A program made the translations under genes and the position numbers. A stretch of DNA of 64,000 nt from Eledone cirrhosa (taxonomy: Eukaryota), in NCBI GenBank assembly GCA_964016885.1, contig OZ024766.1:1984001-2048000 (forward strand), written 5' to 3'. Under the pieces are notes generated by a model. That model was given only the letters and a program-made list of their open reading frames with translations. It ran no database searches and was not told the DNA's origin. This document shows positions 1 to 32,280 of this stretch, one piece after another; the stretch's first letter is position 1, and every line of letters begins with the position of its first letter.

Positions 1-2466
1 TAATTATAAATACGGAAAGTGTAGAGACAGAAGATAAATAAAACTTCAAATAATCATAATATCCGACATTGTTTTGAGAATAATAGTGTAAAATTGACAC
101 CGGTTTAGGGGTCCACGTAACCTTTGCCCTCTAAATATTTAATCATTAGTAATAAAAACACGAATTCCCTTCGTAGTAACCGACGGAGTGCCACACTCTC
201 TCTGTATTTATATATATATATGTTAAGTAGTTTGTGTTAAATAATTATATATATATATATAATATTATAAGAATAGGTTAAAATTTAAGTTAAGAATCGC
301 AGGTTTCACGCTTAACGTGATTCAATCATCAAATATAAAAAAGTCAGCTGAAACTTTTTTGCACCCATTTTTGCGATTAAGTAAAGACAGAGTTATCGTT
401 CTTGAGATTTCGGCTGAGAGAAATTTGGGGAACTGATGTCGCTAAATCGTCAAAGTATTTACCTCTACTGTTGCATCATGGGAGGGTAATGGCTGAATTT
501 TTTTTTTAACGACGGCAATTTTTTAAATTTCTTTCCCGCCATCTTGTTCCTTGTTTGATATTAATGAATAAATATCAAATAATTAACTAATTTATTGCAC
601 ACCTCTCTTTATTTTGAACATCAAGTCACCATGGGAACGAGAGGGCAAGGGTTACGTGGAACCCTAAACCGGTGTCAATTTTACACTATTATTCTCAAAA
701 CAATGTCAAATATTATGATTATTTTGAAGTTTTATTTATCTTCTGTCTCTACACTTTCCGTATTTATAATTAAATAAATAAATTTAAGGTTTTTAATACT
801 TTAAATATATAAAATTTACAGCAAGTTTTCTGGTAGCTTCGTTGGTAGGAGTAATGGGTATTTATTGTTTCGTAGCGAGGTGAGAGGTTCGATATCGAAC
901 TGCCGTAGTAGGAATAATTTACAATATATTTATATATATAGATGTGTATATATATATTAATTTATATATATAGATGTGTATATATATATACATACATATA
1001 TATATATATACATACATACATATATACTTACATACATACATATATATATATGTATTCGATATATATTTATCTTTATCGTTATCGAGACCTCTTTGGATTT
1101 TAGTCTTCACATTTATTATTACTATATGTATATAAATATATATATTCGTATATATATAAATATATATACATACATCTATATATATGGTGGCTGCCAACTC
1201 ATTTTCGAGTACGGCTACTACTTTATATCCATGTAGGAGAACCCCTAGCGATGCGCTGAACGAGTGTGACTTTTCAGTCCAGCCAGCGACTTGAAAACTC
1301 TGGTGCAAACAGTACACTTGTGACATTTATTGACACATAGTGCTGGGCCCATGGTACCATGTGACGACAAGTGCAGAGAGATCTCCAGATATAAAGCAAT
1401 GCCTGTGACGTGAAGCTTTTATATTGAGCAAAGGCACTGCACAAAGCCAGTCCCACTCTCTTAACCAAGATGATATTTACCAAAAAGAAGGACAAGTCAA
1501 CATCATTGGATACCATCAGGGTTGCAGGTGTTATATCAGAGTTTTCCTTCTCCTAGAATTCTGCCTTGACAAAGGCTAAGGGGTCATCTTTCCCGGATAT
1601 GTATATATATATACATACATACATATTCAATCATTAGTAATAAAAACACGAATTCCCTTCGTCGTAAACGACGGAGTGCCACACTCTCTCTGTATTTATA
1701 TCACGGCACAGGCATTGCTTTATATCTGGAGATCTCTCTGCACTTGTCGTCACATGGTACCATGGGCCCAGCACTATGTGTCAATAAATGTCACAAGTGT
1801 AGTGTTTGTACCAGAGTTTTCAAGTCGCTGGCTGGACTGAAAAATCACACTCGTTCAGCGCATCCGTAGGGGTTCTCCTACATGGATATAAAGTAGTGGC
1901 CGTACTCGAAAACGAGTTGGCAGCCACCATATATATATAGATGTATGTATATATATTTATATATATTCGAATATATATATTTATATACATATAGTAATAA
2001 TAAATGTGAAGACTAAAATCCAAAGAGGTCTCGATAAAGATAAATATATATCGAATACATATATATATATGTGTATGTATGTATGCATGTATATATGTAT
2101 ATACGTATGTATATATGTATGTATGTATATATATGTATATATATATATATATATATATACACATCTATATATATAAAATAAACACATTGTAAATTATTCC
2201 TACTACGGCAGTTCGATATCGAACCTCTCACCTCGCTACGAAACAATAAATACCCATTACTCCTACCAACGAAGCTACCAGAAAACTTGCTGTAAATTTA
2301 AAGTATTAAAAACCTTAAATTTATTTTTTTAATTATAAATACGGAAAGTGTAGAGACAGAAGATAAATAAAACTTCAAAATAATCATAATATCTGACATT
2401 GTTTTGAGAATAATAGTGTAAACAATTGACACCGGTTTAAGGGTTCCACGTAACCCTTGCCCTCTC

Positions 2467-2480
2467 GTTCCCATGGTGAC
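2467..2480. promoter_or_regulatory. RFX X-box motif (also at 625-638, 4508-4521, 6362-6375, 8372-8385)
   Basis: GTTCCCATGGTGAC; reverse complement GTCACCATGGGAAC matches the X-box consensus GTHNYY-AT-RRNAAC. It lies upstream of a motile-cilia gene. Confidence 0.6.
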
Positions 2481-2562
2481 TTGATGTTCAGATTAAAGAG
2501 AGGTGTGCAATAAATTAGTTAATTATTTGATATTTATTCATTAATATCAAACAAGGAACAAG

Positions 2563-2643
2563 ATGGCGGGAAAGAAATTAAAAAAATTGCCGTCGTTAAA
2601 AAAAAAAATTCAGCCATTACCCTCCCATGATGCAACAGTAGAG
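2563..2643 (+). CDS. Candidate first coding exon (MAGKKLKKLPSLKKKIQPLPSHDATVE), possibly of CCDC40
   Basis: caagATGGCG start 83 nt downstream of the X-box, 81-nt open frame, GAG|GTAAAT donor in phase 0. No homology support. Confidence 0.35.
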
Positions 2644-3644
2644 GTAAATACTTTGACTATTTAGCGACATCAGTTCCCCAAATTTCTCTCAGCCGAAATC
2701 TCAAGAACGATAACTCTGTCTTTACTTAATCGCAAAAATGGGTGCAAAAAAGTTTCAGCTGACTTTTTTATGTTTGATGATTGAATCACGTTAAGCGTGA
2801 AACCTGCGATTCTTAACTTAAATTTTAACCTGTTCTTATAATATATATATATATAATAATATATATATAGATATATATAATTATTTAATATAAATTACTT
2901 AACATATATAGAGAGTGTGGCACTCCGTCGGTTACGACGAAGGGAATTTGTGTTTTTATTATTAATGATTAAAATGTATGTATGTATATATACATACATA
3001 TCCAGGAGAGATGACCCCTTAGCCTTTGTCAAGGCTGAATTCTAGGAGAAGGAAAACTCTGATATAACACCTGCAGCCCTGATGGTATCCAATGATATTG
3101 ACTTGTTCTTTTTGGTAAATATCATCTTGGTTAAGAGAGTGGGACTGGCTTTGTGCAGTGCTCACTATAAAAGCTTCACAGCACAGGCATTGCTTTATAT
3201 CTGGAGATCTCTCTGCACTTGTCGTCACATGGTACCATGGGCCCAGCACTATGTGTCAATAATTTTCACAAGTGTAGTGTTTGTACCGGAGTTTTCAAGT
3301 CGCTGGCTGGACTAAAAAGTCACACTCGTTCAGCGCATCGGTAGGGCTTCTCCTACATGGATATAAAGTAGTGGCCGTACTCGAAAACGAGTTGGCAGCC
3401 ACCATATATATATAGATGTATGTATATATATTTATATATATATACGAATATATATATATATATAGTAATAATAAATGTGAAGACTAAAATCCAAAGAGGT
3501 CTCGATAACGATAAAGATAAATAAATATCGAATATATATCTGTGTATATATATATATGTATGTATGTATGTATATGTATGTATGTATATATATCTATGTA
3601 TATGTATGTATGTACGTATGTATGTATTTATATATGTATGTACA

Positions 3645-3689
<45 letters not shown>

Positions 3690-6600
3690 CTATATATATA
3701 AAATAAACACATTGTAAATTATTCCTACTACAGCAGTTCGATATCGAACCTCTCACCTCGTTACGAAACAATAAATACCCATTACTCCTACCAACGAAGC
3801 TACCAGAAAACTTGCTGTAAATTTTATATATTTAAAGTATTAAAAACCTTAAATTTATTTATTTAATTATAAATACGGAAAGTGTACAAATAAAACTTCA
3901 AAATAATCATAATATCTGACATTGTTTTGAGAATAATAGTGTAAAATTGACACCGGTTTAGGGGTTCCACGTAACCTTTGCCCTCTAAATATTTAATCAT
4001 TAGTAATAAAAACACGAATTCCCTTCGTAGTAACCGACGGAGTGCCACACTCTCTCTGTATTTATATATATATTGTTAAGTAGTTTGTGTTAAATAATTA
4101 TATATATATATATTATTATATATATATATTTATTATTATATATATATTATAAGAACAGGTTAAAATTTAAGTTAAGAATCGCTGCTTTCACGCTTAACGT
4201 GATTCAATCATCAAACATAAAAAAATCTGCTGAAACTTTTTTGCACCGATTTTTGCGATTAAGTAAAGACAGAGTTATCGTTCTTGAGATTTCGGCTGAG
4301 AGAAATTTGGGGAACTGATGTCGCTAAATAGTCAAAGTATTTACCTCTACTGTTGCATCATGGGAGGGTAATGGCTGAATTTTTTTTTTTAACGACGGCA
4401 ATTTTTTAAATTTCTTTCCCGCCATCTTGTTCCTTGTTTGTTATTAATGAATAAATATCAAATAATTAACTAATTTATTGCACACCTCTCTTTAATCTGA
4501 ACATCAAGTCACCATGGGAACGAGAGGGCAAGGGTTACGTGGACCCCTAAACCGGTGTCAATTGTTTACACTATTATTCTCAAAACAATGTCAGATATTA
4601 TGATTATTTTGAAGTTTTATTTATCTTCTGTCTCTACACTTTCCGTATTTATAATTAAATAAATAAATTTAAGGTTTTTAATACTTTAAATATATAAAAT
4701 TTACAGCAAGTTTTCTGGTAGCTTCGTTGGTAGGAGTAATGGGTATTTATTGTTTCGTAGCGAGGTGAGAGGTTCGATATCGAACTGCCGTAGTAGGAAT
4801 AATTTACAATATATTTATATATATAGATGTGTATATATATATTAATTTATATATATAGATGTGTATATATATATACATACATATATATATATATACATAC
4901 ATACATATATACTTACATACATACATATATATATATATGTATTCGATATATATTTATCTTTATCGTTATCGAGACCTCTTTGGATTTTAGTCTTCACATT
5001 TATTATTACTATATGTATATAAATATATATATTCGTATATATATAAATATATATACATACATCTATATATATGGTGGCTGCCAACTCATTTTCGAGTACG
5101 GCTACTACTTTATATCCATGTAGGAGAACCCCTAGCGATGCGCTGAACGAGTGTGACTTTTCAGTCCAGCCAGCGACTTGAAAACTCTGGTGCAAACAGT
5201 ACACTTGTGACATTTATTGACACATAGTGCTGGGCCCATGGTACCATGTGACGACAAGTGCAGAGAGATCTCCAGATATAAAGCAATGCCTGTGACGTGA
5301 AGCTTTTATATTGAGCAAAGGCACTGCACAAAGCCAGTCCCACTCTCTTAACCAAGATGATATTTACCAAAAGGAAGGACAAGTCAACATCATTGGATAC
5401 CATCAGGGTTGCAGGTGTTATATCAGAGTTTTCCTTCTCCTAGAATTCTGCCTTGACAAAGGCTAAGGGGTCATCTCTCCCGGATTTGTATATATATATA
5501 CATACATACATACATATTCAATCATTAGTAATAAAAACACGAATTCCCTTCGTCGTAACCGACGGAGTGCCACACTCTCTCTGTATTTATATCACGGCAC
5601 AGGCATTGCTTTATATCTGGAGATCTCTCTGCACTTGTCGTCACATGGTACCATGGGCCCAGCACTATGTGTCAATAATTGTCACAAGTGTAGTGTTTGT
5701 ACCAGAGTTTTCAAGTCGCTGGCTGGACTAAAAAGTCACACTCGTTCAGCACATCGGTAGGGGTTCTCCTACATGGATATAAAGTAGTGGCCGTACTCGA
5801 AAACGAGTTGGCAGCCACCATATATATAGATGTATGTATATATATTTATATATATACGAATATATATATTTATATACATATAGTAATAATAAATGTGAAG
5901 ACTAAAATCCAAAGAGGTCTCGATAACGATAAAGATAAATATATATCGAATACATATATATATATGTATGTATATATGTACGTATGTATATATATATATA
6001 TGTCTGTATATATGTATGTATATATATATATGTATATATATATATACACATCTATATATATAAAATAAACACATTGTAAATTATTCCTACTACGGCAGTT
6101 CGATATTGAACCTCTCACCTCGCTACGAAACAATAAATACCCATTACTCCTACCAACGAAGCTACCAGAAAACTTGCTGTAAATTTTATATATTTAAAGT
6201 ATTAAAAACCTTAAATTTATTTATTTAATTATAAATACGGAAAGTGTAGAGACAGAAGATAAATAAAACTTCAAAATAATCATAATATCTGACATTGTTT
6301 TGAGAATAATAGTGTAAACAATTGACACCGGTTTAGGGGTCCACGTAACCCTTGCCCTCTCGTTCCCATGGTGACTTGATGTTCAGATTAAAGAGAGGTG
6401 TGCAATAAATTAGTTAATTATTTGATATTTATTCATTAATAACAAACAAGGAACAAGATGGGGGGAAAGAAATTAAAAAAATTGCCGTCGTTAAAAAAAA
6501 AAATTCAGCCATTACCCCTCCCATGATGCAACAGTAGAGGTAAATACTTTGACGATTTAGCGACATCAGTTCCCCAAATTTCTCTCAGCCGAAATCTCAA

Positions 6601-8695
6601 GAACGATAACTCTGTCTTTACTTAATCGCAAAAATGGGTGCAAAAAAGTTTCAGCTGACTTTTTTATGTTTGATGATTGAATCACGTTAAGCGTGAAAGC
6701 AGCGATTCTTAACTTAAATTTTAACCTGTTCTTATAATATATATATAGATATATATAATTATTTAACATAAATTACTTAACATATATAGAGAGTGTGGCA
6801 CTCCGTCGGTTACGACGAAGGGAATTTGTGTTTTTATTACTAATGATTAAATATGTATGTATATACATATGTATGTATATATACATACATATCCGGGAGA
6901 GATGACCCCTTAGCCTTTGTCAAGGCAGAATTCAAGGAGAAGGAAAACTCTGATATAACACCTGCAACCCTGATGGTATCCAATGATGTTGACTTGTTCT
7001 TCGTTTTGGTAAATATCATCTTGGTTAAGAGAGTGGGACTGGCTTTGTGCAGTGCCTTTGCTCACTATAAAAGCTTCACGGCACAGGCATTGCTTTATAT
7101 CTGGAGATCTCTCTGCACTTGTCCTCACAAGGTACCATGGGCCCAGCACTATGTGTCAATAAATGTCACAAGTGTAGTGTCTGTACCAGAGTTTTCAAGT
7201 CGCTGGCTGGACTAAAATGTCACACTCGTTCAGCGCATCGGTAGGGGTTCACCTACATGGATATAAAGTAGTGACCGTACTCGAAAACGAGTTGGCAGCC
7301 ACCATATATATAGATGTATGTATATATATTTATATATATACGAATATATATATATATATAGTAATAATAAATGTGAAGACTAAAATCCAAAGAGGTCTCG
7401 ATAACGATAAAGATAAATAAATATCGAATATATATGTGTGTATATATATATGTATGTATGTATATATATATGTATGTATGTATATATATGTATGTATATG
7501 TATGTATGTATTTATATATGTATGTATGTACATATATGTATGCATATATATATATATATATATACACACCTCTATATATATAAAATAAACATTGTAAATT
7601 ATTCCTACTACAGCAGTTCGATATCGAACCTCTCACCTCGTTACGAAACAATAAATACCCATTACTCCTACCAACGAAGCTACCAGAAAACTTGCTGTAA
7701 ATTTTATATATTTAAAGTATTAAAAACCTTAAATTTATTTATTTAATTATAAATACGGAAAGTGTACAAATAAAACTTCAAAATAATCATAATATCTGAC
7801 ATTGTTTTGAGAATAATAGTGTAAAATTGACACCGGTTTAGGGGTTCCACGTAACCTTTGCCCTCTAAATATTTAATCATTAGTAATAAAAACACGAATT
7901 CCCTTCGTAGTAACCGACGGAGTGCCACACTCTCTCTGTATTTATATATATATATATGTTAAGTAGTTTGTGTTAAATAATTATATATATATATATTATT
8001 ACATATATATTATAAGAACAGGTTAAAATTTAAGTTAAGAATCGCTGCTTTCACGCTTAACGTGATTCAATCATCAAACATAAAAAAAGTCAGCTGAAAC
8101 TTTTTTGCACCCATTTTTGCGATTAAGTAAAGACAGAGTTATCGTTCTTGAGATTTCGGCTGAGAGAAATTTGGGGAACTGATGTCGCTAAATAGTCAAA
8201 GTATTTACCTCTACTGTTGCATCATGGGAGGGTAATGGCTGAATTTTTTTTTTTAACGACGGCAATTTTTTTAATTTCTTTCCCGCCATCTTGTTCCTTG
8301 TTTGTTATTAATGAATAAATATCAAATAATTAACTAATTTATTGCACACCTCTCTTTAATCTGAACATCAAGTCACCATGGGAACGAGAGGGCAAGGGTT
8401 ACGTGGACCCCTAAACCGGTGTCAATTGTTTACACTATTATTCTCAAAACAATGTCAGATATTATGATTATTTTGAAGTTTTATTTATCTTCTGTCTCTA
8501 CACTTTCCGTATTTATAATTAAATAAATAAATTTAAGGTTTTTAATACTTTAAATATATAAAATTTACAGCAAGTTTTCTGGTAGCTTCGTTGGTAGGAG
8601 TAATGGGTATTTATTGTTTCGTAGCGAGGTGAGAGGTTCGATATCGAACTGCCGTAGTAGGAATAATTTACAATGTGTTTATTTTATATATATAG

Positions 8696-8736
<41 letters not shown>

Positions 8737-9530
8737 CATACATATATATATACATATATATATACATGCGTACATACATACATATATATATATGTATTCG
8801 ATATATATTTATCTTTATCGTTATCGAGACCTCGTTGGATTTTAATCTTCACATTTATTATTACTATATGTATATAAATATATATATTCGTATATATATA
8901 AATATATATACATACATCTATATATATGGTGGCTGCCAACTCATTTTCGAGTACGGCCACTACTTTATATCCATGTAGGAGAACCCCTACCGATGCGCTG
9001 AACGAGTGTGAGTTTTCAGTCCAGCCAGCGACGTGAAAACTCTGGTGCAAACAGTACACTTCTGACAATTATTGACACATAGTGGTGGGCCCATGGTACC
9101 ATGTGACGACAAGTGCAGAGAGATCTCCAGATATAAAGCAATGCCTGTGCCGTGAAGCTTTTATAGTGAGCAAAGGCACTGCACAAAGCCAGTCCCACTC
9201 TCTTAACCAAGATGATATTTACCAAAAAGAAGGACAAGTCAACATCATTGGATACCATCAGGGTTGCAGGTGTTATATCAGAGTTTTCCTTCTCCTAGAA
9301 TTCTGCCTTGACAAAGGCTAAGGGGTCATCTCTCCCGGATATGTATGTATATATACATACATACATACATACATATTCAATCATTAGTAATAAAAACACG
9401 AATTCCCTTCGTCGTAACCGACGGAGTGCCATACTCTCTCTGTATTTATATCACGGCACAGGCATTGCTTTATATCTGGAGATCTCTCTGCACTTGTCGT
9501 CACATGGTACCATGGGCCCAGCACTATGTA

Positions 9531-9676
9531 ATGTCTCCCTCTATTGGGGGAAAATCGACTAACTTTTTAAATTGCATTTGTGATAACATTTTACACGTTT
9601 TTATTGTATGTAAACTTCCCCCTTTGTATTTGTCCCCTTGTTTTGTGCCCCTGTGGCTAATAAAGAAACGTATCTA

Positions 9677-9717
<41 letters not shown>

Positions 9718-9718
9718 G
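9531..9718 (+). mobile_element. 3' end of Tx1/L1-like LINE with (TATC)n tail
   Basis: Near-identical to 58424-58588; ends GTGGCTAATAAAGAA + (TATC)n. Confidence 0.75.
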
Positions 9719-9749
9719 TCTATTTATATATAAAATTATTTCACTTCAG

Positions 9750-9833
9750 CCCCGGATGGTAAAGTTCCAAAATTCCATGAAGAATTATCTCATGAAAATA
9801 TTGGAAAAGTCCATGCTGGAGCTGCAGCAAGTT
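9750..9833 (+). CDS. CCDC40: CCDC40 exon ([28 protein letters not shown])
   Basis: ttcag| acceptor, |gtaagt donor, 84 nt, phase 0-0. Confidence 0.9.
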
Positions 9834-10936
9834 GTAAGTACCGTCGCAGACCCAGCCTTACTCCCACCCCTCATTCTATAGAGATATAGAATATATATTA
9901 TATTTTGTTTATCTATCTATTACTAAAAGCCTGTGATTGCTAGCTTGCTTGTCTGTAATGTAATACAGCCAAAAGGGCACATAATGGGGAAATACTTTGC
10001 AAGGAAGTTGACCCTGAAATGGGAATACAAATGGAATAAAACAAGTTTCGCATAAATCGGAGCATGGGTTCCTGAGATATGGGGTTTTCTGGGTACCTTC
10101 ATAAACAGGGAGAGAGAGAGAGAAAGATAGAGAGGAAGAGAGAGTGGTTGTGAGAGACAGAGGTGGGGAATGGAAGAGAGAGAGAGAGAGAGCTGGTGGT
10201 GTTGTTGTGTATATATATATCACAGAAAAAAGGGAATCAGAGATGAAGAGAGAGTGGTTGTGAGAGACAGAGGTGGGGAATGGAAGAGAGAGAGAGAGAG
10301 AGAGAGCTGGTGGTGTTGTTGTGTGTATATATATCACAGAAAAAAGGGAATCAGAGATGAAGAGAGAGTGGTTGTGAGAGACAGGTGGGGAATGGAAGAG
10401 AGAGAGAGAGAGCTGGTGGTGTTGTTGTGTATATATATATCACAGAAAAAAGGGAATCAGAGATGAAGAGAGAGTGGTTGTGAGAGACAGAGGTGGGGAA
10501 TGGAAGAGAGAGAGAGAGAGAGAGAGAGCTGGTGGTGTTGTTGTGTGTATATATATCACAGAAAAAAGGGAATCAGAGATGAAGAGAGAGTGGTTGTGAG
10601 AGACAGAGGTGGGGAATGGAAGAGAGAGAGAGAGAGAGAGCTGGTGGTGTTGTTGTGTGTATATATATCACAGAAAAAAGGGAATCAGAGATGAAGAGAG
10701 AGTGGTTGTGAGAGACAGGTGGGGAATGGGAGAGAGAGAGCTAGTGGTGTTGTTGTGTATATATATATCACAGAAAAAAGGGAATCAGAGATGAAGAGAG
10801 AGTGGTTGTGAGAGACAGAGGTGGGGAATGGAAGAGAGAGAGAGAGAGAGCTGGTGGTGTTGTTGTGTGTATATATATCACAGAAAAAAGGGAATCAGAG
10901 ATGAAGAGAGAGTGGTTGTGAGAGACAGAGGTGGGG

Positions 10937-10968
<32 letters not shown>

Positions 10969-13900
10969 CTGGTGGTGTTGTTGTGTGTATATATATCACA
11001 GAAAAAAGGGAATCAGAGATGAAGAGAGAGTGGTTGTGAGAGACAGGTGGGGAATGGAAGAGAGAGAGAGAGAGCTGGTGGTGTTGTTGTGTATATATAT
11101 ATCACAGAAAAAAGGGAATCAGTGATGAAGAGAGAGTGGTTGTGAGATACAGAGGGAGAGAGAGACAGAGGTGGGGAATGGAAGAGAGAGAGAGAGAGAG
11201 CTGGTGGTGTTGTTGTGTGTGGAGAGGAGACAGAGGTGGGGAATGGAAGAGAGAGAGAGAGAGAGAGCTGGTGGTGGTGTTGTGTGTGGAGAGGAGACAG
11301 AGGTGGGGAATGGAAGAGAGAGAGAGAGAGAGCTGGTGGTGTTGTTGTGTGTGGAGAGGAGACAGAGGTGGGGAATGGAAGAGAGAGAGAGAGAGCTGGT
11401 GGTGTTGTTGTGTGTGGAGAGGAGACAGAGGTGGGGAATGGAAGAGAGAGAGAGAGCTGGTGGTGGTGTTGTGTGTGGAGAGGAGACAGAGGTGGGGAAT
11501 GGAAGAGAGAGAGAGAGAGAGCTGGTGGTGTTGTTGTGTGTGGAGAGGAGACAGAGGTGGGGAATGGAAGAGAGAGAGAGAGAGCTGGTGGTGGTGTTGT
11601 GTGTGGAGAGGAGACAGAGGTGGGGAATGGAAGAGAGAGAGAGAGAGCTGGTGGTTTTTTGTGTGTGGAGAGGAGACAGAGGTGGGGAATGGAAGAGAGA
11701 GAGAGAGAGAGAGAGCTGGTGGTGTTGTTGTGTGTGGAGAGGAGACAGAGGTGGGGAATGGAAGAGAGAGAGAGAGAGAGCTGGTGGTGTTGTTGTGTGT
11801 GGAGAGGAGACAGAGGTGGGGAATGGAAGAGAGAGAGAGAGAGAGCTGGTGGTGGTGTTGTGTGTGGAGAGGAGACAGAGGTGGGGAATGGAAAAGAGAG
11901 AGAGAGAGAGCTGGTGGTGGTGTTGTGTGTGGAGAGGAGACAGAGGTGGGGAATGGAAGAGAGAGAGAGAGAGAGCTGGTGGTGTTGTTGTGTGTGGAGA
12001 GGAGACAGAGGTGGGGAATGGAAGAGAGAGAGAGAGAGAGCTGGTGGTGGTGTTGTGTGTGGAGAGGAGACAGAGGTGGGGAATGGAAGAGAGAGAGAGA
12101 GAGAGCTGGTGGTTTTTTGTGTGTGGAGAGGAGACAGAGGTGGGGAATGGAAGAGAGAGAGAGAGAGAGCTGGTGGTGTTGTTGTGTGTGGAGAGGAGAC
12201 AGAGGTGGGGAATGGAAGAGAGAGAGAGAGAGAGCTGGTGGTGTTGTTGTGTGTGGAGAGGAGACAGAGGTGGGGAATGGAAGAGAGAGAGAGAGAGAGC
12301 TGGTGGTGGTGTTGTGTGTGGAGAGGTGACAGAGGTGGGGAATGGAAGAGAGAGAGAGAGAGAGAGAGCTGGTGGTGGTGTTGTGTGTGGAGAGGAGACA
12401 GAGGTGGGGAATGGAAGAGAGAGAGAGAGAGAGCTGGTGGTGTTGTTGTGTGTGGAGAGGAGACAGAGGTGGGGAATGGAAGAGAGAGAGAGAGAGAGCT
12501 GGTGGTGGTGTTGTGTGTGGAGAGGAGACAGAGGTGGGGAATGGAAGAGAGAGAGAGAGAGAGCTGGTGGTGGTGTTGTGTGTGGAGAGGAGACAGAGGT
12601 GGGGAATGGAAGAGAGAGAGAGAGAGAGAGCTGGTGGTGTTGTTGTGTGTGGAGAGGAGACAGAGGTGGGGAATGGAAGAGAGAGAGAGAGAGAGCTGGT
12701 GGTGGTGTTGTGTGTGGAGAGGAGACAGAGGTGGGGAATGGAAGAGAGAGAGAGAGAGAGCTGGTGGTGGTGTTGTGTGTGGAGAGGAGACAGAGGTGGG
12801 GAATGGAAGAGAGAGAGAGAGAGAGAGCTGGTGGTGGTGTTGTGTGTGTATATATCACAGAAAAAAGGGAATCAGAGATGAAGAGAGAGTGGTTGTGAGA
12901 GACAGAGGGAGAGAGAGACGGAGGTGGGGGAATGGAAGAGAGAGAGAGAGAGAGCTGGTGGTGTTGTTGTGTGTGGAGAGGAGACAGAGGTGGGGAATGG
13001 AAGAGAGAGAGAGAGAGAGCTGGTGGTGTTGTTGTGTGTGGAGAGGAGACAGAGGTGGGGAATGGAAGAGAGAGAGAGAGAGAGCTGGTGGTGGTGTTGT
13101 GTGTGGAGAGGAGACAGAGGTGGGGAATGGAAGAGAGAGAGAGAGAGAGCTGGTGGTGTTGTTGTGTGTGGAGAGGAGACAGAGGTGGGGAATGGAAGAG
13201 AGAGAGAGAGAGAGCTCGTGGTGTTGTTGTGTGTGGAGAGGAGACAGAGGTGGGGAATGGAAGAGAGAGAGAGAGAGAGAGCTGGTGGTGTTGTTGTGTG
13301 TGGAGAGGAGAGAGAGGTGGGGAATGGAAGAGAGAGCGAGAGAGAGAGAGCTGGTTGTGTTGTTGTGTGTGGAGAGGAGACAGAGGTGGGGAATGGAAGA
13401 GAGAATGAGAGAGAGAGCTGGTGGTGTTGTTGTGTGTGGAGAGGAGACAGAGGTGGGGAATGGAAGAGAGAGAGAGAGAGAGAGCTGGTGGTGTTGTTGT
13501 GTGTGTATATATCACAGAAAAAAGGGAATCAGAGATGAAGAGAGAGTGGTTGTGAGAGACAGAGGGAGAGAGAGACGGAGGTGGGGGAATGGAAGAGAGA
13601 GAGAGAGAGAGCTGGTGGTGTTGTTGTGTGTGGAGAGGAGACAGAGGTGGGGAATGGAAGAGAGAGAGAGAGAGAGAGCTGGTGGTGTTGTTGTGTGTGG
13701 AGAGGAGACAGAGGTGGGGAATGGAAGAGAGAGAGAGAGAGAGAGAGAGCTGGTGGTGTTGTTGTGTGTGGAGAGGAGACAGAGGTGGGGAATGGAAGAG
13801 AGAGAGAGAGAGAGAGAGCTGGTGGTGTTGTTGTGTGTGGAGAGGAGACAGAGGTGGGGAATGGAAGAGAGAGAGTGAGAGAGAGCTGGTGGTGTTGTTG

Positions 13901-13992
13901 TGTGTGGAGAGGAGACAGAGGTGGGGAATGGAAGAGAGAGAGAGAGAGAGAGCTGTGGTGGTGTTGTGTGTGGAGAGGAGACAGAGGTGGGG

Positions 13993-14024
<32 letters not shown>

Positions 14025-14355
14025 CTGGTGGTGGTGTTGTGTGTGGAGAGGAGACAGAGGTGGGGAATGGAAGAGAGAGAGAGAGGTGGGGAATGGAAGA
14101 GAGAGAGAGAGAGCTGGTGGTGTTGTTGTGTGTGGAGAGGAGACAGAGGTGGGGAATGGAAGAGAGAGAGAGAGAGAGCTGGTGGTGTTGTTGTGTGTGG
14201 AGAGGAGACAGAGGTGGGGAATGGAAGAGAGAGAGAGAGAGAGAGCTGGTGGTGTTGTTGTGTGTGGAGAGGAGACAGAGGTGGGGAATGGAAGAGAGAG
14301 AGAGGGAGAGAGAGCTGGTGGTGTTGTTGTGTGTGGAGAGGAGACAGAGGTGGGG

Positions 14356-14393
<38 letters not shown>

Positions 14394-14826
14394 GGTGGTG
14401 TTGTTGTGTGTGGAGAGGAGACAGAGGTGGGGAATGGAAGAGAGAGAGAGAGAGCTGGTGGTGTTGTTGTGTGTGGAGAGGAGACAGAGGTGGGGAATGG
14501 AAGAGAGAGAGAGAGAGAGCTGGTGGTGTTGTTGTGTGTGGAGAGGAGACAGAGGTGGGGAATGGAAGAGAGAGAGAGAGAGAGCTGGTGGTGGTGTTGT
14601 GTGTGGAGAGGAGACAGAGGTGGGGAATGGAAGAGAGAGAGAGAGAGAGAGAGCTGGTGGTGTTGTTGTGTGTGGAGAGGAGACAGAGGTGGGGAATGGA
14701 AGAGAGAGAGAGAGAGAGAGAGCTGGTGGTGTTGTTGTGTGTGGAGAGGAGACAGAGGTGGGGAATGGAAGAGAGAGAGAGAGAGCTGGTGGTGTTGTTG
14801 TGTGTGGAGAGGAGACAGAGGTGGGG

Positions 14827-14860
<34 letters not shown>

Positions 14861-14998
14861 CTGGTGGTGTTGTTGTGTGTGGAGAGGAGACAGAGGTGGG
14901 GAATGGAAGAGAGAGAGAGAGAGAGAGAGAGCTGGTGGTGTTGTTGTGTGTGGAGAGGAGACAGAGGTGGGGAATGGAAGAGAGAGACAGAGGTGGGG

Positions 14999-15036
<38 letters not shown>

Positions 15037-15201
15037 GGTGGTGTTGTTGTGTGTGGAGAGGAGACAGAGGTGGGGAATGGAAGAGAGAGAGAGAGAAAGA
15101 GCTGGTGGTGTTGTTGTGTGTGGAGAGGAGACAGAGGTGGGGAATGGAAGAGAGAGAGAGCTGGTGGTGTTGTTGTGTGTGGAGAGGAGACAGAGGTGGG
15201 G

Positions 15202-15233
<32 letters not shown>

Positions 15234-18200
15234 CTGGTGTTGTTGTTGTGTGTGGAGAGGAGACAGAGGTGGGGAATGGAAGAGAGAGAGAGAGAGAGAG
15301 AGAGCTGGTGGTGTTGTTGTGTGTGGAGAGGAGACAGAGGTGGGGAATGGAAGAGAGAGACAGAGGTGGGGAATGGAAGAGAGAGAGAGAGAGAGAGAGC
15401 TGGTGGTGTTGTTGTGTGTGGAGAGGAGACAGAGGTGGGGAATGGAAGAGAGAGAGAGAGAGAGAGAGCTGGTGGTGTTGTTGTGTGTGGAGAGGAGACA
15501 GAGGTGGGGAATGGAAGAGAGAGAGAGAGAGCTGGTGGTGTTGTTGTGTGTGGAGAGGAGACAGAGGTGGGGAATGGAAGAGAGAGAGAGAGAGAGAGAG
15601 CTGGTGGTGTTGTTGTGTGTGGAGAGGAGACAGAGGTGGGGAATGGAAGAGAGAGAGAGAGAGAGCTGGTGGTGTTGTTGTGTGTGGAGAGGAGACAGAG
15701 GTGGGGAATGGAAGAGAGAGAGAGAGAGAGAGCTGGTGGTGTTGTTGTGTGTGGAGAGGAGACAGAGGTGGGGAATGGAAGAGAGAGAGAGAGAGAGAGA
15801 GAGCTGGTGGTGTTGTTGTGTGTGGAGAGGAGACAGAGGTGGGGAATGGAAGAGAGAGAGAGAGAGAGAGCTGGTGGTGTTGTTGTGTGTATATATCACA
15901 GAAAAAAGGGAATCAGAGATGTAGAGAGAGTGGTTGTGAGAGACAGAGGGAGAGAGAGACAGAGGTGGGGGAATGGAAGAGAGAGAGAGAGAGCTGGTGG
16001 TGTTGTTGTGTGTGTATATATCACAGAAAAAAGGGAATCAGAGATGAAGAGAGAGTGGTTGTGAGAGACAGAGGTGGGGGAATGGAAGAGAGAGAGAGAG
16101 AGAGAGAGCTGGTGGTGTTGTTGTGTGTGGAGAGGAGACAGAGGTGGGGAATGGAAGAGAGAGACAGAGGTGGGGAATGGAAGAGAGAGAGAGAGAGAGA
16201 GAGAGCTGGTGGTGTTGTTGTGTGTATATATCACAGAAAAAAAGGGGAATCAGTGTTGTTGATGTTGTCACAGTCTCTGTTGAAGCTTGGCTGTTGTTGT
16301 CAATTGCAGACGAAGCCCCTGAAGCTACTAAAACAGGAGAAAGAGGACCTCGGAGTGCAGCTGTACGGTGTGCAGCAGGAGCTGGCCAGTAAACAGATGC
16401 AGCTGGAGGAGCAACAGGATAAGTGCACCATGGCTAAAGAGGTGCGCAGGCAGGAAGAGGCCAACCTGAAGCAGGCAAAGCGGACCTGTGTAGGGGTGCA
16501 GAATGAACTGAACCAGAACAGGAAGCACGGTGAGTGGTGGGGGCTGGGGCGGGGTGTACAGTGGTGGGGGCTGGGGAGGGATGTACAGTGGGGCGGGGTG
16601 TACAGTGGTGGGGGCTGGGGCGGGGTGTACAGTGGTGGGGGGGGGGGGGGGGTGTACAGTGGTAGTGGTGGGGTGTACAGTGGTGGGGGTGGGGGCGGGG
16701 TGTACAGTGGTGGGGGTGGTTGGGTGGGGTGTACAGTGGTGGGGGTAGTTGGGGTGGGGTGTACAGTGGTGGGGGTGGGGGCGGGGTGTACAGTGGTGGG
16801 GTGGGGCGGGGTGTACAGTAGTGGTGGTGGGGACGGGGTGTACAGTGGTGGGGTGGTGGGGACGGGGTGTACAGTGGTGGGGGTGGGGCAGGGTGTACAG
16901 TAGTGGTGGTGGGGACGGGGTGTACAGTGGTGGGGTGGTGGGGACGGGGTGTACAGTGGTGGGGGTGGGGCAGGGTGTACAGTAGTGGTGGTGGGGACGA
17001 GGTGTACAGTGGTGGGGTGGTGGGGACGAGGTGTACAGTGGTGGGGTGGTGGGGACGGGGTGTACAGTGGTGGGGGTGGGGCGGGGTGTACAGTGGTAGT
17101 GGTGGGGGAGGGGTGTACAGTGGTGGGGGTGAGGTGTACAGTGGTAGGGACGGGGTGTACAGTGGTGGGGGTGAGGTGTACAGTGGTAGTGGTGGGGTGT
17201 ACAGTGGTAGGGGTGGGGTGTACAGTGGTGGGGGTGGTAGTGGTGGGGTGTACAGTGGTGGGGGTGGTAGTGGTGGGGTGTACAGTGGTAGTAGTAGTGG
17301 TGGTAGTACTAAATCTAACACATTTGTGTTGTATATATATTATTGTCTAGAATAAGGACAGGGTGGAAGAAGTTTAGGGAGCTGCTTCCTCTGTTGACAA
17401 AGAAGGGTTTCTCCCTGCGTACGAAGGGCCGGCTGTGTGATGCCCGTGCGAGGAGCGCGATGCTGCACGGTAGTGAGACATGGGCAGCAACTGCAGAGGA
17501 TATGCGACGGCTGGAGAGAAATGAGGCAAGCATGCCCCGTTTGGTCTTTTGCCGTCCCCTCGGTCCAGCCCCACCGTCTCGAGTGGGATGGGGAAGCCTG
17601 CAGCATCTAAGCCATGCTCTATGACCTCGTTGAGGGCAGCCGGCTCACTGTAGAGACAGGAAAGTGGGTGGAGGCCACGTTGTGTGACCTTATACCAGCC
17701 AGCAGCCTGAGCCACTATGCTATATTATATTATATGGTCGTGTGACCCTATTGCAGCCTCGAGCCTGAGACAAGATGTTGATAATATGGAGATACACAGG
17801 TTCTACCTGAAAAACTCAATGGATGAAGTTGGTGGCGACATAAAGCTTCTGATGAGGGCCCTAGAGAAAACTGCAACTGATATAGCAACGGCGGAGACAG
17901 ATCAGAAAAAACAGGTGAGTTCTACACTACACTACACTACACTACGCTACACTACACCACACTACACTACACTACACTACACCACACCACACCACACCAC
18001 ACCACACTACACTACACTACACTACACTACACCACACCACACTACACCACACCACACCACACCACACTACACTACACTACACCACACCACACCACACCAC
18101 ACCACACCACACCACACCACACCACACCACACCACACCACACTACACTACACTACATACACCACACCACACCACACCACACTACACACCACCACACTACA

Positions 18201-21200
18201 CACCACACCACACCACACTACACACCACCACACCGCACCACTACGCCACACCACACCACACCACACTACACACCACACCACACCACACTACACACCACCA
18301 CACCACACCACTACGCCACACCACACCACACTACACTACACCACACTACACTACACCACACTACACCGCACCGCACCGCACCGCACCGCACCGCACCGCA
18401 CCGCACCACACCACACCACACCACACCACACCACACCACACCACACCACACCACCACTACGCCACACCACACCACACTACACCACACTACACTACACCAC
18501 ACCGCACCGCACCGCACCGCACCGCACCGCACCGCACCGCACCGCACCGCACCGCACCGCACCGCACCGCACCGCACCGCACCGCACCGCACCGCACCGC
18601 ACCGCACCGCACCGCACCGCACCGCACCGCACCGCACCGCACCGCACCGCACCGCACCGCACCGCACCGCACCGCACCGCACCGCACCGCACCGCACCGC
18701 ACCACTACGCCACACCACACCAGACAGTCATCGGTCATATTATTTTCGTTCTAGGACTACTTTGTTGACCGTCTGGTGAAACGAACACACAAACTGCGGA
18801 ACGACATCGCGATGTACGACGCCCAGTATAAACTACAGTCGGATGAAACAAAGAACATCCGGACCATTCTCCATGATGCTGAAATACAACTGTCGGTACG
18901 TATGTGGGGTCACCGGCGTCATTTAGTATCTATTTTTCTGTATATAAGAGGGATAGGCAATGACTTTCATTAGAAATATGGTATCAAAGGTTTAAAGTTT
19001 TTATATTTACCGACAAACCTTTGTTAAGTTATGTTCTATGTATGGTAATGAAATAGCGAAAACAGCTGTGGACATGTCCTAACTGAGTGTCTGTCTGTCT
19101 GTCTCTTTGTTAGTTGATTAACCAAGAAAAAGATCGAATCTACCACAACTGGTGCAACAGTATCTATGGAATGAGGAAGAGAGATGAGGCTTATTCTGCG
19201 GCATTAGACGCTGTCAAGTAAGTATTGTGGTATGTGTGGTATGCTGGGTGCTTTTTTCTGTGTCCTTCACATGTCTACTTTACAGTGTGGGCTGAGTGCT
19301 TTTTTCTGTGTCCTTTACATGTCCACTTTACAGTGTGGGCTGGGTGCTTTTTTCTGTGTCCTTTACATGTCCACTTTACAGTGTGGGCTGGGTGCTTTTT
19401 TCTGTGTCCTTCACATGTCTACTTTACAGTGTGGGCTGGGTGCTTTTTTCTGTGTCCTTCACATGTCTACTTTACAGTGTGGGCTGGGTGCTTTTTTCTG
19501 TGTCCTTCACATGTCTACTTTACAGTGTGGGCTGGGTGCTTTTTTTCTGTGTCCTTTACATGTCCACTTTATATATATATGTATAGTTATGGTAACCATA
19601 TATATCATCATCATCATCATCATCATCGTTTAACGTCCATCTTCCACGCTTGCATGGGTTTGGACGGGAGTTTTCCCACTTGAGGCAAGAGTGGTTGTCT
19701 GGCGGGTTTTCTACGGCTGGATGCCCTTCCTAACAGCAACCACGTTTACAGTGTGGACTGGGAGGTTTTGACCGTGTTACCTACACGACCACATTACAGC
19801 GTGGACCATATATATATATATATACACTATATATGATGTTGTCCAAGGGAAAGGCAATGTTTGATACAGCTTGGCACCAGTGACATGACAACTTATTTCT
19901 ACAGCTGAGTAAACTGGAGCAATGTGAAATAAAGTGTCTTGCTCAAGGAAACAACACATCACCCGGTCTGAGAATTGAACTCACAACCTTTCGATTGCAA
20001 GCCCAATGCTCTAACCACTAAGCCATGTGCCTTCATAACACTAACACCCAACCATTCTTCCCTTTGTAGGCAGCTCCAGGAGCAAATGATGTTTATTAAA
20101 CGTGACATAAATGGGTACAAGAAGTCCACTACGGAAGTCCAGCAGGAGAACGAGAAGCTGACACAAACACACAAGAGAAGCCAGCATGATGTGGATGTGA
20201 TTAAGGAACAACTCACTAAGACTGTACAAATGTATGAAGACCTGAAGATGCAGTATGGAAAATATACGAGATTGCTGAAGGAAACTGAAGAGATACTGAT
20301 GACAACAAACGCTGTGAGTTGTTATTGTTGTTGTTGGTGGTGGTGCTGGTGCTGGTGGTGGTGGTGGTGGTGTGGTGGTGCAGTGTTACTGTTATTGGTG
20401 TGGTGGTGGTGTTACTGCTTATTCCAAAGATTCACCACAACTTCTTTCCATAACATGGAACTGGGAAATTATAACACATAACCCTATCAGTGAAGCCCTT
20501 TAGTATAGGCCAACTGGGAAACTATAACATACATAACCTTATCAGTGAAGCCCTTTAGTATAGGTCAACTGGGAAACTATAACATATATAACCACATCAG
20601 TGAAGCCCTTTAGTATAGGTCAACTGGGAAACTATAACATATATAACCCTATCAGTGAAGCCCTTTAGTATAGGTCAACTGGGAAACTATAACATATATA
20701 ACCCTATCAGTGAAGCCCTATACGAGCCTGACAGTCCTATACGAGCAAGACAACCATTCTTGCCTCAAGTGGGACAACTCCCGTCCAGACCCATGCTAGC
20801 GTGGAAAATGGACGTTAAACGAAGATGATTTCAGAGCACCAATCCTAATATATATATCATTTCGTCATTTTCGTTTTTTTTACGTCCGCTTTTCCCTGCT
20901 TGCAAGGGTGGGACGGGAACTGATGCTGGCTTGATTTCTACAGCTGGATGCCCTTCCTAACACCAACCTCATTTACAGTGAGTGCTGGGTGCTTTCTTGC
21001 CATGGCACCTCCACGACCACTTTACAGTGGAATGATAGGGACCCCAGTCCCTATCATCTCATTGCTACAGCTGAGTAAACTGGAGCAAGGTGAAATAAAG
21101 TGTCTTGTTCAAGGAAACAACACATCACCCGGTCTGAGAAAATTGAACTCACAACCTTTCGATTGCAAGCCCAATGCTCTAACCACTAAGCCATGTGCCT

Positions 21201-21478
21201 CCATATATAGATATATATATTTTTTTATCTGCAGAATAAAAACGGTATGGAAGACACTCTGAAGAAAATGAGGAAGGATTTTGAGAAAAAGGTGAATGAA
21301 ATGAGATCATTGGAAAGTGAAATCATGGACAAGATCAATAACCAATTAGTAATGAAAAAGTCTGCGAAATATATCGGCAAGTTAACCTCAAAGAATGAGG
21401 TCATCACTGAACATTTGGTGAGTTGTTGGCAGTTGGGGGGTCAGTCGGTTCTCACATACTCACATATAAGTGTATATA

Positions 21479-21511
<33 letters not shown>

Positions 21512-21570
21512 GTGTATATATGTGTGTATATATGTATATATATATATATATATATGGGTGTGTGTGTATA

Positions 21571-21603
<33 letters not shown>

Positions 21604-21608
21604 GTGTA

Positions 21609-21655
<47 letters not shown>

Positions 21656-21656
21656 T

Positions 21657-21690
<34 letters not shown>

Positions 21691-21714
21691 CATACATATA
21701 TATATATATACACT

Positions 21715-21748
<34 letters not shown>

Positions 21749-23119
21749 CACTTATATATATATATATATATATATATACACTTACACTTACATATATATA
21801 TATACACTTACATATATATATACATATATATATATATATACACATATATATATATATACACATATATATATATATACACTTATATATATATACACACACA
21901 CATATATATATATATATACACTTACACATATATATATATACACACACGTATATATATATATACACACACATATATATATATATACACTTACATATATATA
22001 TATATACACACACACACATATATATATATATACACTTACACATATATATATATATACACACACATATATATATATATACACACACATATATATATATATA
22101 TACACACACATATATATATATATATACACACACATATATATATATATATACACTTACATATATATACATCTATTCTACGGGTGTTTCATTATTCTTTTCC
22201 ACTCCATGTCCAGCTTTCCACAAGGACATCATTGGAGAACGATTACTCCCACATCTTACTGGAGATGACGTCAATGAAGTCAGAGAAGAAGCACTTTGAT
22301 ATAGTTCTGGCTGAGTACGAGGTGGACATAGCCAGCAAGAACAAAGTGGTTGACACATGTGAGGCCGGGATTGTCAACCGAAGGAAACTGGTCAACAGAA
22401 AACAGAATATTACGGACTCCTGTCAGAAGAAGCTGGATCAACTTATTAACAGGGCTGGGGTGAGTAGGCAGATATTTGGGTTTTCATCATCATCATCATC
22501 ATCATCATCATTGTTACGCCTGCTTTTTCCCTGCTTGCAAGGGTGGGACGGGAACTGGTTCTGGCTTGATCTCTACAGCTGGATGCCCTTCCTAACACCA
22601 ACCTCATTTACAGTGAGTGCTGGGTGCTTTTTTGCTGTGGCACCTCCACGACCACTTTACAGTGAGTGCTGGGTGCTTTTTTGCCGTGGCACCTCCACGA
22701 CCACTTTACAGTGAGTGCTGGGTGCTTTTTTGCTGTGGCACCTCCGTGAGTGCTGGGTGCTTTTTTTGCTGTGGCACCTCCACGACCACTTTACAGTGAG
22801 TGCTGGGTGCTTTTTTGCTGTGGCACCTCCGTGAGTGCTGGGTGCTTTTTTGCTGTGGCACCTCCACGACCACTTTACAGTGAGTTTTGGGTGCTTTTTT
22901 GCTGTGGCACCTCCACAACCACTTTGCAGTGGAATGATAGGGACCCCAGTCCCTATAATCTCATTTCTACAGCTGAGTAAACTGGAGCAACGTTAAATAA
23001 AGTGTCTTGCTCAAGGAAACAACACATCACCAGGTCTGAGAATTGAACTCACAACCTTTCGAATATAGTTTCCATTTATTAATATATTGTATATATAGCA
23101 GAATGACCCGGCGTTGCTC

Positions 23120-23160
<41 letters not shown>

Positions 23161-28088: not shown

Positions 28089-28123
<35 letters not shown>

Positions 28124-31100: not shown

Positions 31101-31601
31101 AGTTACATAATCATATTTATCAATTATACGTATTTCTGTGGCAGCAGCATGGAGCTGTGTAAATATATCTGTGTTTATGTATTTTTCAGGAAACCTTTGA
31201 GCTCTCCAATGAAATGCATTCTGTCCAACAAAGGCAGAATATATGTGGTGATGAACTTGAATCTCTTCAGATGGACTGTGGCAAACTGAAGTCTAAACTT
31301 GACCAGACAACTGATATCATTGAGAAGAACAGCAATGTAAAATACAGGGTAAATATGTCTCTTTGTACAGCTTTCTTTCTGTTTCATGTATCTGTATATA
31401 TATATATATGGAGAAAAAATTTACGAAATGGAGATGCGGGTATATAGAATTTATTAGGTAACAATTGTTTCTATAGTGTATGAGTTACCTATACCTCGCT
31501 ATTTGAATAATACACAAATATTATCAAAAACCGAAAGTACACTGTAAGCCAACACACCATGTCATCAGACCCTCTGTATTAGAATGATATGAAAATATTA
31601 T

Positions 31602-31639
<38 letters not shown>

Positions 31640-32019: not shown

Positions 32020-32051
<32 letters not shown>

Positions 32052-32280
32052 ACGTAGGTCCCGGGTTGAGTCAGGGATAACCACAGTAAGTAAGGTACTC
32101 AATACATGGCAGAGTAAAAAATACCATCCTACCCCCCCAAAATCCCCCCCAGCCACCACCCCTCCCTCACCACTACCTAAATGTATAAATACCAGAACTT
32201 AATATGACACCCAGCTTCCTGAAGATTTCATCTGAATGAAACAGTACTAGTCCTGTAGAAGCTCCTTCTATAAAATAAAA

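Follow-up and report, generated by a model that had tools for sequence, protein, structure and literature searches.

At the start of a 64,000-nt stretch of Eledone cirrhosa DNA (hereafter the window: GCA_964016885.1, contig OZ024766.1, 1,984,001-2,048,000, forward strand), a fold-back array lies upstream of the first CCDC40 exon found there. It appears somewhat probable that this array arose when a foreign 1.5-kb fragment with promoter-like features underwent asymmetric tandem-inversion duplication and amplification; the fragment likely carries the promoter and first exon of another gene and likely sits within the CCDC40 intron before position 9750. On this reading, the locus preserves, in compact form, a natural example of a small promoter-like piece of DNA being built up into an inverted higher-order array by a cephalopod genome rich in repeats, and long intronic dsRNA would be expected in the CCDC40 pre-mRNA. 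CCDC40 is an essential axonemal ruler gene, and a narrow literature search combining CCDC40 with octopus returned no paper.

Table 1. Coordinates of the array, its components and the neighboring gene, in window positions
Feature	Position	Strand	Remarks
Whole array	1..9529	.	~1.52-kb monomer in ~3.87-kb direct + inverted higher-order unit, ~2.5 units
Inverted monomer m1	132..1699	-	segment S (~72-80 nt) at both ends
Direct segment 1	1701..3986	+	begins within retroelement, then X-box and exon, then second tandem copy
Inverted monomer m2	3986..5590	-	
Direct segment 2	5592..7866	+	
Inverted monomer m3	7866..9449	-	
Direct segment 3, 79-nt stub	9451..9529	+	array terminates inside retroelement
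Fold-back junction J1	1695..1705 (also 5591, 9450)	.	(AT)n tract edge fused to retroelement interior
Fold-back junction J2	3980..3995 (also 132, 7866)	.	base before X-box fused to AT/ATGT tract edge
X-box-like palindrome	2467..2480; also 625-638, 4508-4521, 6362-6375, 8372-8385	.	14-nt imperfect palindrome
Exon-like ORF	2563..2643	+	81 nt, 27 codons, basic, faces CCDC40, in phase with 9750
Second facing exon-like copy	6458..6539	+	82 nt, frameshifted, codon 2 altered (caagATGGGG)
Exon-like copy, away-facing	463..542	-	80 nt, frameshifted
Exon-like copy, away-facing	4345..4425	-	81 nt, open
Exon-like copy, away-facing	8209..8289	-	81 nt, open
Donor-like GAG/GTGAGA	8626..8634	+	back side of nearest X-box
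Retroelement R, 5'-truncated, dispersed	3002..3425	+	also 1162-1596 -, 5049-5483 -, 6893-7327 +, 8904-9338 -
Retroelement R, partial copies	1701, 5592, 9451		
Longer independent copy of R	28130..28732	+	within CCDC40 intron
LINE 3' end, 5'-truncated, (TATC)n tail	9532..9731	+	abuts array
CCDC40 gene body	9750..33390	+	15 exon stretches matched; no N-terminal exon in window
First CCDC40 exon in window	9750..9833	+	P0001 residues 60-87, phase 0

Architecture of the array and divergence of its copies

Each higher-order unit combines one inverted monomer with ~1.5 direct monomers, the junctions recurring at periods of 3891, 3859, 3854 and 3880, and the array runs off the window start, so that its length in Table 1 is a lower bound. 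Self-matches within it (HSPs of 1-5.7 kb, 87-96% identity, E=0) represent repetition far beyond chance. The fold-back amplification proposed in an earlier note on this DNA is thus supported by direct and inverted copies with recurrent junctions; of the five alternating copies it described, the five sets of X-box, ATG and donor were found where it had placed them, two facing CCDC40 and three facing away, but they belong to the ~3.87-kb higher-order repeat rather than being five alternating copies of one unit.

In addition to the five copies with an X-box, three direct partial copies, among them the second tandem copy in direct segment 1, break off 1 nt before the X-box. Junction J1 has an unpaired spacer of ~290 nt and ~1 nt of microhomology, J2 has no microhomology and carries a short palindrome, TAAATATTTA, and each of the two is identical in all three of its copies. 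The junctions showed no sign of short inverted repeats that predate them, and among the 457 inverted pairs of the monomer, the 25 longest were microsatellite only, with no terminal inverted repeats.

The copies are 1.3-3.9% diverged and carry position-specific shared variants. In a 547-nt region common to seven copies, 13 substitutions are shared and 20 are private; three sites carry variants restricted to the inverted copies, and a further four sites, all transitions, together with an 11-nt deletion, are restricted to the truncated direct copies. Four-gamete conflicts affect 14 of 78 site pairs among seven copies and 60 of 120 among five, counts that are inflated because site 1047 is alignment-ambiguous (it enters 6 of the 14 pairs). 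Errors in the consensus could account for the frameshifts at homopolymers and for part of the private transversions.

Amplification chimeras also show tandem and inverted copies with asymmetric spacers, and the array resembles them in this respect, which, together with the finding that only 8 of the 20 private substitutions are transitions, would suit a fold-back chimera or the rolling-circle amplification of a single molecule during library preparation or sequencing. Such an artifact is, however, very improbable in view of the shared position-specific substitutions, the multi-base deletions, the divergence of up to 3.9%, the mosaicism, the junctions that are identical three times, and a 41-nt satellite in the same window that has no near-identical mirror arms. 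The array is real.

Repeats within and beside the array

Some 435 nt of the monomer belongs to a dispersed repeat that recurs at 28300-28732 (~95-97%), which goes part of the way toward what the earlier note said would refute its reading, a unit that is a dispersed high-copy repeat; the promoter and exon portion (approximately 2200-2830) is found nowhere else in the window outside the array. The repeat corresponds to the truncated retroelement R, presumably RTE-derived, which has a microsatellite tail and a terminal C2H2 finger, the latter matching zf-C2H2 at E=8.4e-5, short of the curated cut-off; a 49-aa piece of it, searched for homology to RTE reverse transcriptase, gave no protein match.

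The right end of the array is a breakpoint, at which a fragment of this retroelement lies against a truncated LINE rather than native intron sequence. The LINE fragment is 94.6% identical to 58424-58588, near a zf-RVT ORF, and no target-site duplication was found around it (longest shared word, 5 nt). An abrupt end at a multicopy fragment of this kind, the missing upstream CCDC40 exon, and the 200-N gap and many repeats present in the window would all fit an assembly error, in which a real array was misjoined to CCDC40 at the LINE/(TATC)n repeat or assembled with too few copies. This is nevertheless unlikely, as the LINE fragment is only ~200 nt and can be spanned by long reads, and other CCDC40 introns are also inflated by repeats, up to 6.5 kb.

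The window also contains a young Penelope-like element at 34.4-38.8 kb with a 1.79-kb inverted copy (98.7%). In the excerpted texts of PMC8557442 and PMC3846280, Penelope-like machinery makes tandem and inverted structures, keeps introns, favors (TA)n, and is described in trans-mobilization and host capture. The monomer might be a mobile or satellite unit, e.g., host DNA moved in trans by such machinery, with the X-box and exon as passengers or chance motifs, and the direct repeats of segment S that bound the inverted monomers, as well as junctions at (AT)n edges, are consistent with this. It is a rather improbable origin, given that the 3' ends of the direct and inverted arms differ whichever way they are read (monomer positions 1 vs 291 and 82 vs 1068), that no part of the monomer matches the Penelope-like element of the window, and that no hammerhead core was found. 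An Rfam search of positions 1-10000 (E<=1) gave 80 matches, all of them miRNA models on AT microsatellites below the gathering score, while the gathering-score search of the whole window gave two tRNA-like heads outside the array; ARAGORN found no tRNA.

A promoter-like unit

The palindrome GTCACCATGGGAAC occurs five times in the 64 kb, always within the array (+ 625, 4508 and 8372; - 2480 and 6375), and the order reported earlier, an X-box, an ATG 83 nt further on and a donor, was borne out in all five copies. The pattern GTHNYYATRRNAAC, which we take to be the X-box consensus, was matched by chance in 79 of 5000 Markov-resampled monomers, so that the X-box alone is modest evidence; the site fits two X-box consensuses and fails two stricter X-box patterns. 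The donor of the 2563-2643 copy, GAG/GTAAAT, agrees with U1 at 7/9 positions and is among the five best of 161 GT sites. This 81-nt copy is indeed in phase with the phase-0 exon at 9750-9833, which is true of only one of the two facing copies: the one at 6458-6539 has the orientation and the 82 nt previously given, but it reads caagATGGGG, not ATGGCG, and is frameshifted. All four differences among the five exon copies change the protein (4/4), with no sign of purifying selection. The X-box closest to CCDC40 is that of 8372-8385, upstream of the 8289-8209 copy.

The CpG observed/expected ratio is 1.19 vs a median of 0.47, a level reached in 5 of 215 windows at 9.5-42 kb, all five within the (CACCG)n tract at 18.1-19.2 kb. 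High CpG is weak promoter evidence because many octopus genes are unmethylated, according to the excerpt of PMC9476566. The motif GTAAACAA lies ~48 nt upstream in four of the five copies; a depletion of forkhead motifs at promoters has been reported, so this match adds little. Taken by its sequence features, the unit is likely promoter-like, which supports the earlier claim, and it might bind RFX and be transcribed in ciliated cells.

No parent gene was found for the 27-33 aa peptide, either by phmmer (0 matches at E<=0.001 among 1.84 billion representatives) or in the ESM Atlas, Pfam or NCBIfam, although these blanks are weak because the query is short and lysine-rich. The reading frame around it stays open for 39 aa at most. 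The candidate exon may therefore be no exon at all.

Relation to CCDC40

The downstream gene is CCDC40, as had been proposed, with 15 collinear stretches along the coiled coil that are 66.2% identical to O. bimaculoides P0001 over 909 aligned positions; P0001 in turn matches PDB chains of CCDC40/FAP172. Its first tblastn match in the window begins at residue 60, and short protist orthologs in the PDB likewise align from query residues 43-55. Directly before the first residue (P) of the 9750 exon, 40 of 41 named CCDC40 homologs have xDP[D/E]H, the exception being a partial protein, and the net charge of the last 27 residues before this exon is 0 to -15, i.e., non-basic.

The earlier note regarded the array unit as CCDC40's own promoter and first exon, with the caveat that an LDPDH motif was missing from the candidate exon. 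This caveat proved decisive: the candidate peptide ends in HDATVE, with no xDP[D/E]H, and DPxH is absent from the six frames of 1-9760. A comparison with N-termini from other cephalopods, which the note had suggested, also went against its reading, in that these are ~60 aa long with net charges of -12 to -13, the candidate being +5 vs -12 to -46 in nine homologs, and that 66-861 of 1000 shuffles scored as high as the candidate against the nine N-termini. The array unit as CCDC40's own promoter and first exon is thus not supported, the right end of the array also being a breakpoint. As tblastn with the nine N-termini gave only low-complexity matches in the window, we infer that the true acidic N-terminal exon and its promoter lie upstream of the window.

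Predicted pre-mRNA folding and a possible new start

A perfect inverted partner of >=30 nt exists for 73% of 2563-9750, which supports the capacity for long dsRNA claimed earlier, and long intronic dsRNA is predicted in the CCDC40 pre-mRNA. The donors of the facing copies are complementary to away-facing copies along 136-138 of 138-139 nt (~-240 to -250 kcal/mol), and in this folding model both would be buried in near-perfect RNA duplex.

One other reading is that the array marks a rearrangement breakpoint at which the 5' end of CCDC40 was replaced or supplemented, either by splicing the in-phase 81-nt exon to 9750, which would give a basic N-terminus, or by transcription from the back side of the palindromic X-box at 8372, with the donor at 8628 and a start at the in-frame ATG at 9756. 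The matching exon phase, the absence of an N-terminal exon from the window, and an X-box beside a gene of a class controlled by RFX are in line with this, as is the 8628 donor, which scores 7/9 (within the range of 6-9 of 14 CCDC40 donors) and would remain unpaired if transcription began at 8386. In the extracts of the cited papers, Ccdc40 is down in the Rfx2-null mouse testis (PMC4498915), and Rfx motifs are enriched at the promoters of multiciliated-cell genes across animals (PMC5245798). Such a promoter swap is quite improbable, however: both products drop the motif retained in 40/41 homologs, the facing donors would be sequestered in duplex, the stretch between 2643 and 9750 contains 25 AATAAA sites plus an acceptor-like competitor at 6588, three upstream ATGs ahead of the 8628 donor all close early, and the exon copies show no purifying selection.

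Equally doubtful is the far-reaching version in which fold-back amplification captured the RFX promoter of another ciliary gene, providing a new or alternative start for CCDC40 (a basic N-terminus of 27 residues through 2643->9750, or an N-terminally shortened protein through 8628->9750), with opposed promoters and kilobase hairpins that would subject this gene to dsRNA/ADAR control in sperm and ciliated cells. A new start, if true, would matter much more, because it would replace a motif that has been conserved at the N-terminus from chytrids through to mammals.

Proposed origin of the array

Under the favored reading, a foreign fragment amplified within an intron, the array probably goes back to template switching at the edges of (AT)n tracts. 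A 5'-truncated retroelement, which is found in the AT microsatellite upstream of the X-box promoter-like region, may have been in place there first. The 1.5-kb piece was duplicated in tandem, as the continuity of segment S, monomer and segment S shows. The observed junctions and the asymmetric direct/inverted unit of 3.87 kb may then be the product of two template switches, both with 0-1 nt of microhomology and one end at an (AT)n edge. Unequal exchange could have multiplied this unit while gene conversion acted between the arms, a course suggested by the identical junctions and mosaic variants. The expected effect would be a kilobase-scale hairpin in the CCDC40 pre-mRNA, possibly with antisense starts in ciliated cells, and no new CCDC40 start. 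The price of this reading is a coincidence, in that a promoter of ciliary type would have ended up in a ciliary gene by chance.

Comparison with known systems

In relation to the RFX X-box ciliary promoters of the extracts of PMC4498915 and PMC5245798, the array is alike in its 14-nt imperfect palindrome 83 nt from the ATG, its CpG-rich surroundings and GTAAACAA, whereas its downstream peptide is not CCDC40-like. It shares with Penelope-like insertions, as far as the excerpts of PMC8557442 and PMC3846280 describe them, a partial tandem with an inverted truncated copy, the (TA)n association and an intron-bearing cargo, and differs in having no shared 3' end, pLTR, RT/GIY-YIG sequence, hammerhead or match to the local element.

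The FoSTeS/MMBIR duplication-inverted-triplications outlined in the extract of PMC4689423 resemble it in their template-switch junctions and mixed orientation near a gene, although the array is far smaller and its junction ends lie at microsatellite edges instead of long inverted low-copy repeats.

Finally, with TID (Kugelberg et al.)/ODIRA, as presented in the same extract of PMC4689423, the array has in common alternating direct and inverted copies, two recurring junctions (head-head and tail-tail), asymmetric unpaired spacers (here ~290 nt and several hundred nt), and higher-order amplification. It differs in its monomer, which is only 1.5 kb and itself tandemly duplicated, and in its microhomology of 0-1 nt without a visible pre-existing short inverted repeat, which may have been lost by later asymmetric deletion. 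Where TID/ODIRA keeps native flanks, with a replication origin inside in the case of ODIRA, the right flank of the array is the LINE fragment, not a native continuation, and its left flank lies beyond the window; the array is, moreover, diverged and partly homogenized rather than freshly selected.

Organization of the array

Tandem monomers, two recurring asymmetric junctions, higher-order repetition and mosaic variants are all directly visible in the array. The monomer (~1,523 nt) begins with S, the segment that bounds the inverted monomers (~72–80 nt), followed by a microsatellite, R, which is a retroelement fragment of 435 nt, further microsatellites, and an AT-rich region of ~370 nt with a terminal X-box; the exon-like stretch then gives way to ~190 nt of intron-like sequence, with a further microsatellite at the end. 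The higher-order unit, with periods of 3854–3891 nt, is composed of one inverted monomer, with S at both ends, and ~1.5 direct monomers, which start inside R and end 1 nt before the second X-box. The fold-back junction J1, from an (AT)n edge to the interior of R, and J2, from the base before the X-box to an AT-tract edge, are each identical in all three occurrences, with one end at an AT-tract edge and 0–1 nt of microhomology.

Features of the array, the CCDC40 gene and the neighboring repeats
Feature	Position	Strand	Remarks
Array	1–9529		open at window start
Exon-like copy facing CCDC40	2563–2643	+	81 nt
Second facing copy	6458–6539	+	82 nt, frameshifted
X-box nearest to CCDC40	8372		palindromic
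Predicted donor	8628		7 of 9, unpaired
LINE fragment	9532–9731		94.6% to 58424–58588
First CCDC40 exon in window	9750–9833	+	phase 0; in-frame ATG at 9756
Minisatellite	10129–16250		6 kb; 110-nt and 65-nt; strongly purine-skewed; inflates CCDC40 intron
tRNA-like heads	19968–20025, 21136–21193	-	in CCDC40 introns; probably SINEs
Independent copy of R	28130–28732		in CCDC40 intron; 96.6% over 411 nt
Last CCDC40 exon	33280–33390	+	acidic, Gly/Ala-rich C-terminal extension, absent from Octopus proteins
Penelope-like element	34376–38840		young; TA/TG microsatellite at both ends
Its open RT + GIY-YIG frame	36158–37588	+	no Pfam match
Its inverted copy	34376–36155 vs 37047–38840		1.79 kb, 98.7%
41-nt satellite	42700–53140		five orientation flips; no near-identical mirror arms (best 90–91%)
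Assembly gap, then tandem array	53143–55992		200 N; ~51 nt, ~97% identity
LINE 3' pieces	57482–59166		several; zf-RVT domain, (TATC)n tails; family of 9532–9731 fragment

The longer, independent copy of R lies outside the array; R ends in a C2H2 finger and may be RTE-derived; the protein search returned no confirming match. Within the window, no further copy exists of S or of the promoter, exon and intron sequences. It is improbable that the monomer is a mobile or satellite unit. The array ends 79 nt past the third J1, inside R, against the truncated 3' end of a LINE, at which no target-site duplication was found and whose (TATC)n tail stops ~20 nt before the CCDC40 acceptor; that the array was mis-joined to CCDC40 at this point is unlikely.

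Variation among the copies

Where the overlap is long, the copies are 1.3–3.9% divergent outside the microsatellites. Across the 547 nt that seven copies have in common, 13 substitutions are shared and 20 are private. All the inverted copies are marked by three substitutions, and the truncated direct copies by four transitions and an 11-nt deletion. Incompatible site pairs (14 of 78; 60 of 120, one site being alignment-ambiguous) point to gene conversion. Together the variants record a stepwise history rather than re-reads of a single molecule, and an artefact is very improbable. On the other side, transitions account for only 8 of the 20 private changes and the frameshifts lie in homopolymers, so that some differences may be consensus errors.

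The promoter-like unit

All five X-box-like sites, and the five stretches from ATG to donor, were recovered where the earlier note had placed them. Three of these stretches are open, with 81 nt; a frameshift is present in the second facing copy and in one away-facing copy of 80 nt. The 14-nt X-box-like site fits two of four X-box consensuses (chance 79/5000 for the refined consensus, post hoc), and the ATG context AAGATGGCG has a chance of 19/5000, also post hoc. The donor is among the five best of 161 GT sites. The unit has a CpG o/e of 1.19 (median 0.47), which is weak promoter evidence given that many octopus genes are described as unmethylated (PMC9476566). Judging from these signals, the unit is probably the promoter of some gene. 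No parent gene of the candidate peptide encoded by the exon-like stretch was found using phmmer against 1.84 billion representatives, the ESM Atlas, Pfam or NCBIfam.

Relationship with CCDC40

The downstream gene is CCDC40, as had been proposed: 15 collinear stretches, from 9750 to ~33.3 kb, match the Octopus bimaculoides protein P0001 (66.2% over 909 positions), which itself matches solved CCDC40/FAP172 chains, with lower identity to other molluscs (Argonauta 53%, Pomacea 37%). From these values, the window probably belongs to an octopod that the database does not include. Ciliary promoters across animals are described as marked by Rfx motifs (PMC5245798), and mouse Ccdc40 as reduced in Rfx2-null testis (PMC4498915); a literature search found no paper on CCDC40 with octopus.

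The claim that the unit is CCDC40's own promoter and first exon was not supported, given a missing conserved motif, an opposite charge and no N-terminal similarity. The motif xDP[D/E]H directly precedes the proline at the start of the 9750 exon in 40 of 41 named homologues (8 unnamed matches were left out), the exception being a partial protein. The 27 residues before this proline have a net charge of 0 to -15 in the named homologues, and octopus N-termini are acidic (59–62 aa), against +5 in the candidate peptide, which scored no higher than its own shuffles when compared with nine CCDC40 N-termini. The phase match between the 81-nt copy and the 9750 exon is real, but weak as evidence, since only three phases exist. 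No N-terminal exon of CCDC40 was found in the window. Amplification of the 5' end in place would be expected to leave the native intron and a motif-bearing exon after S; the array instead breaks off within R, on the upstream side of the promoter. The five exon copies differ from one another at four points, and each of these differences changes the protein, though the numbers are small. If transcription began at either facing copy, the donor is predicted to pair along essentially its whole length with an away-facing copy before the acceptor has been transcribed. The observation behind the claim was confirmed, and its interpretation supported in part.

A promoter swap at CCDC40 has a further route, missed by the earlier note, through the back side of the palindromic X-box nearest to the gene, with a predicted splice from the unpaired donor to the 9750 exon and its in-frame ATG; three upstream ATGs and the loss of the conserved motif stand against it, and the swap seems quite improbable.

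We somewhat favor the reading that the array is foreign DNA inside a CCDC40 intron. Template switching at AT tracts may have formed the junctions, unequal exchange may have amplified the unit, and conversion may have occurred between the arms; on the favored reading the array is intronic and the true 5' exon lies upstream of the window. For 73% of 2563–9750 there is a perfectly matching inverted segment, 30 nt or longer, so the CCDC40 pre-mRNA is predicted to carry long hairpins. Such hairpins would be open to ADAR editing.

Comparison with known systems

The window's Penelope-like element has Atlas neighbors at 0.94–0.98, several with RVT_1 or GIY-YIG in some members. Penelope-like elements are described as producing similar shapes (PMC8557442, PMC3846280), but the array has no 3' end shared by its direct and inverted arms, as such insertions would, and no sequence in common with the element in the window. 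The array resembles the tandem inversion duplication, or inverted-triplication amplicon, as portrayed in PMC4689423; its junctions, unlike those portrayed there for tandem inversion duplication and ODIRA, have no short inverted repeats, and for this reason it is not filed under ODIRA.
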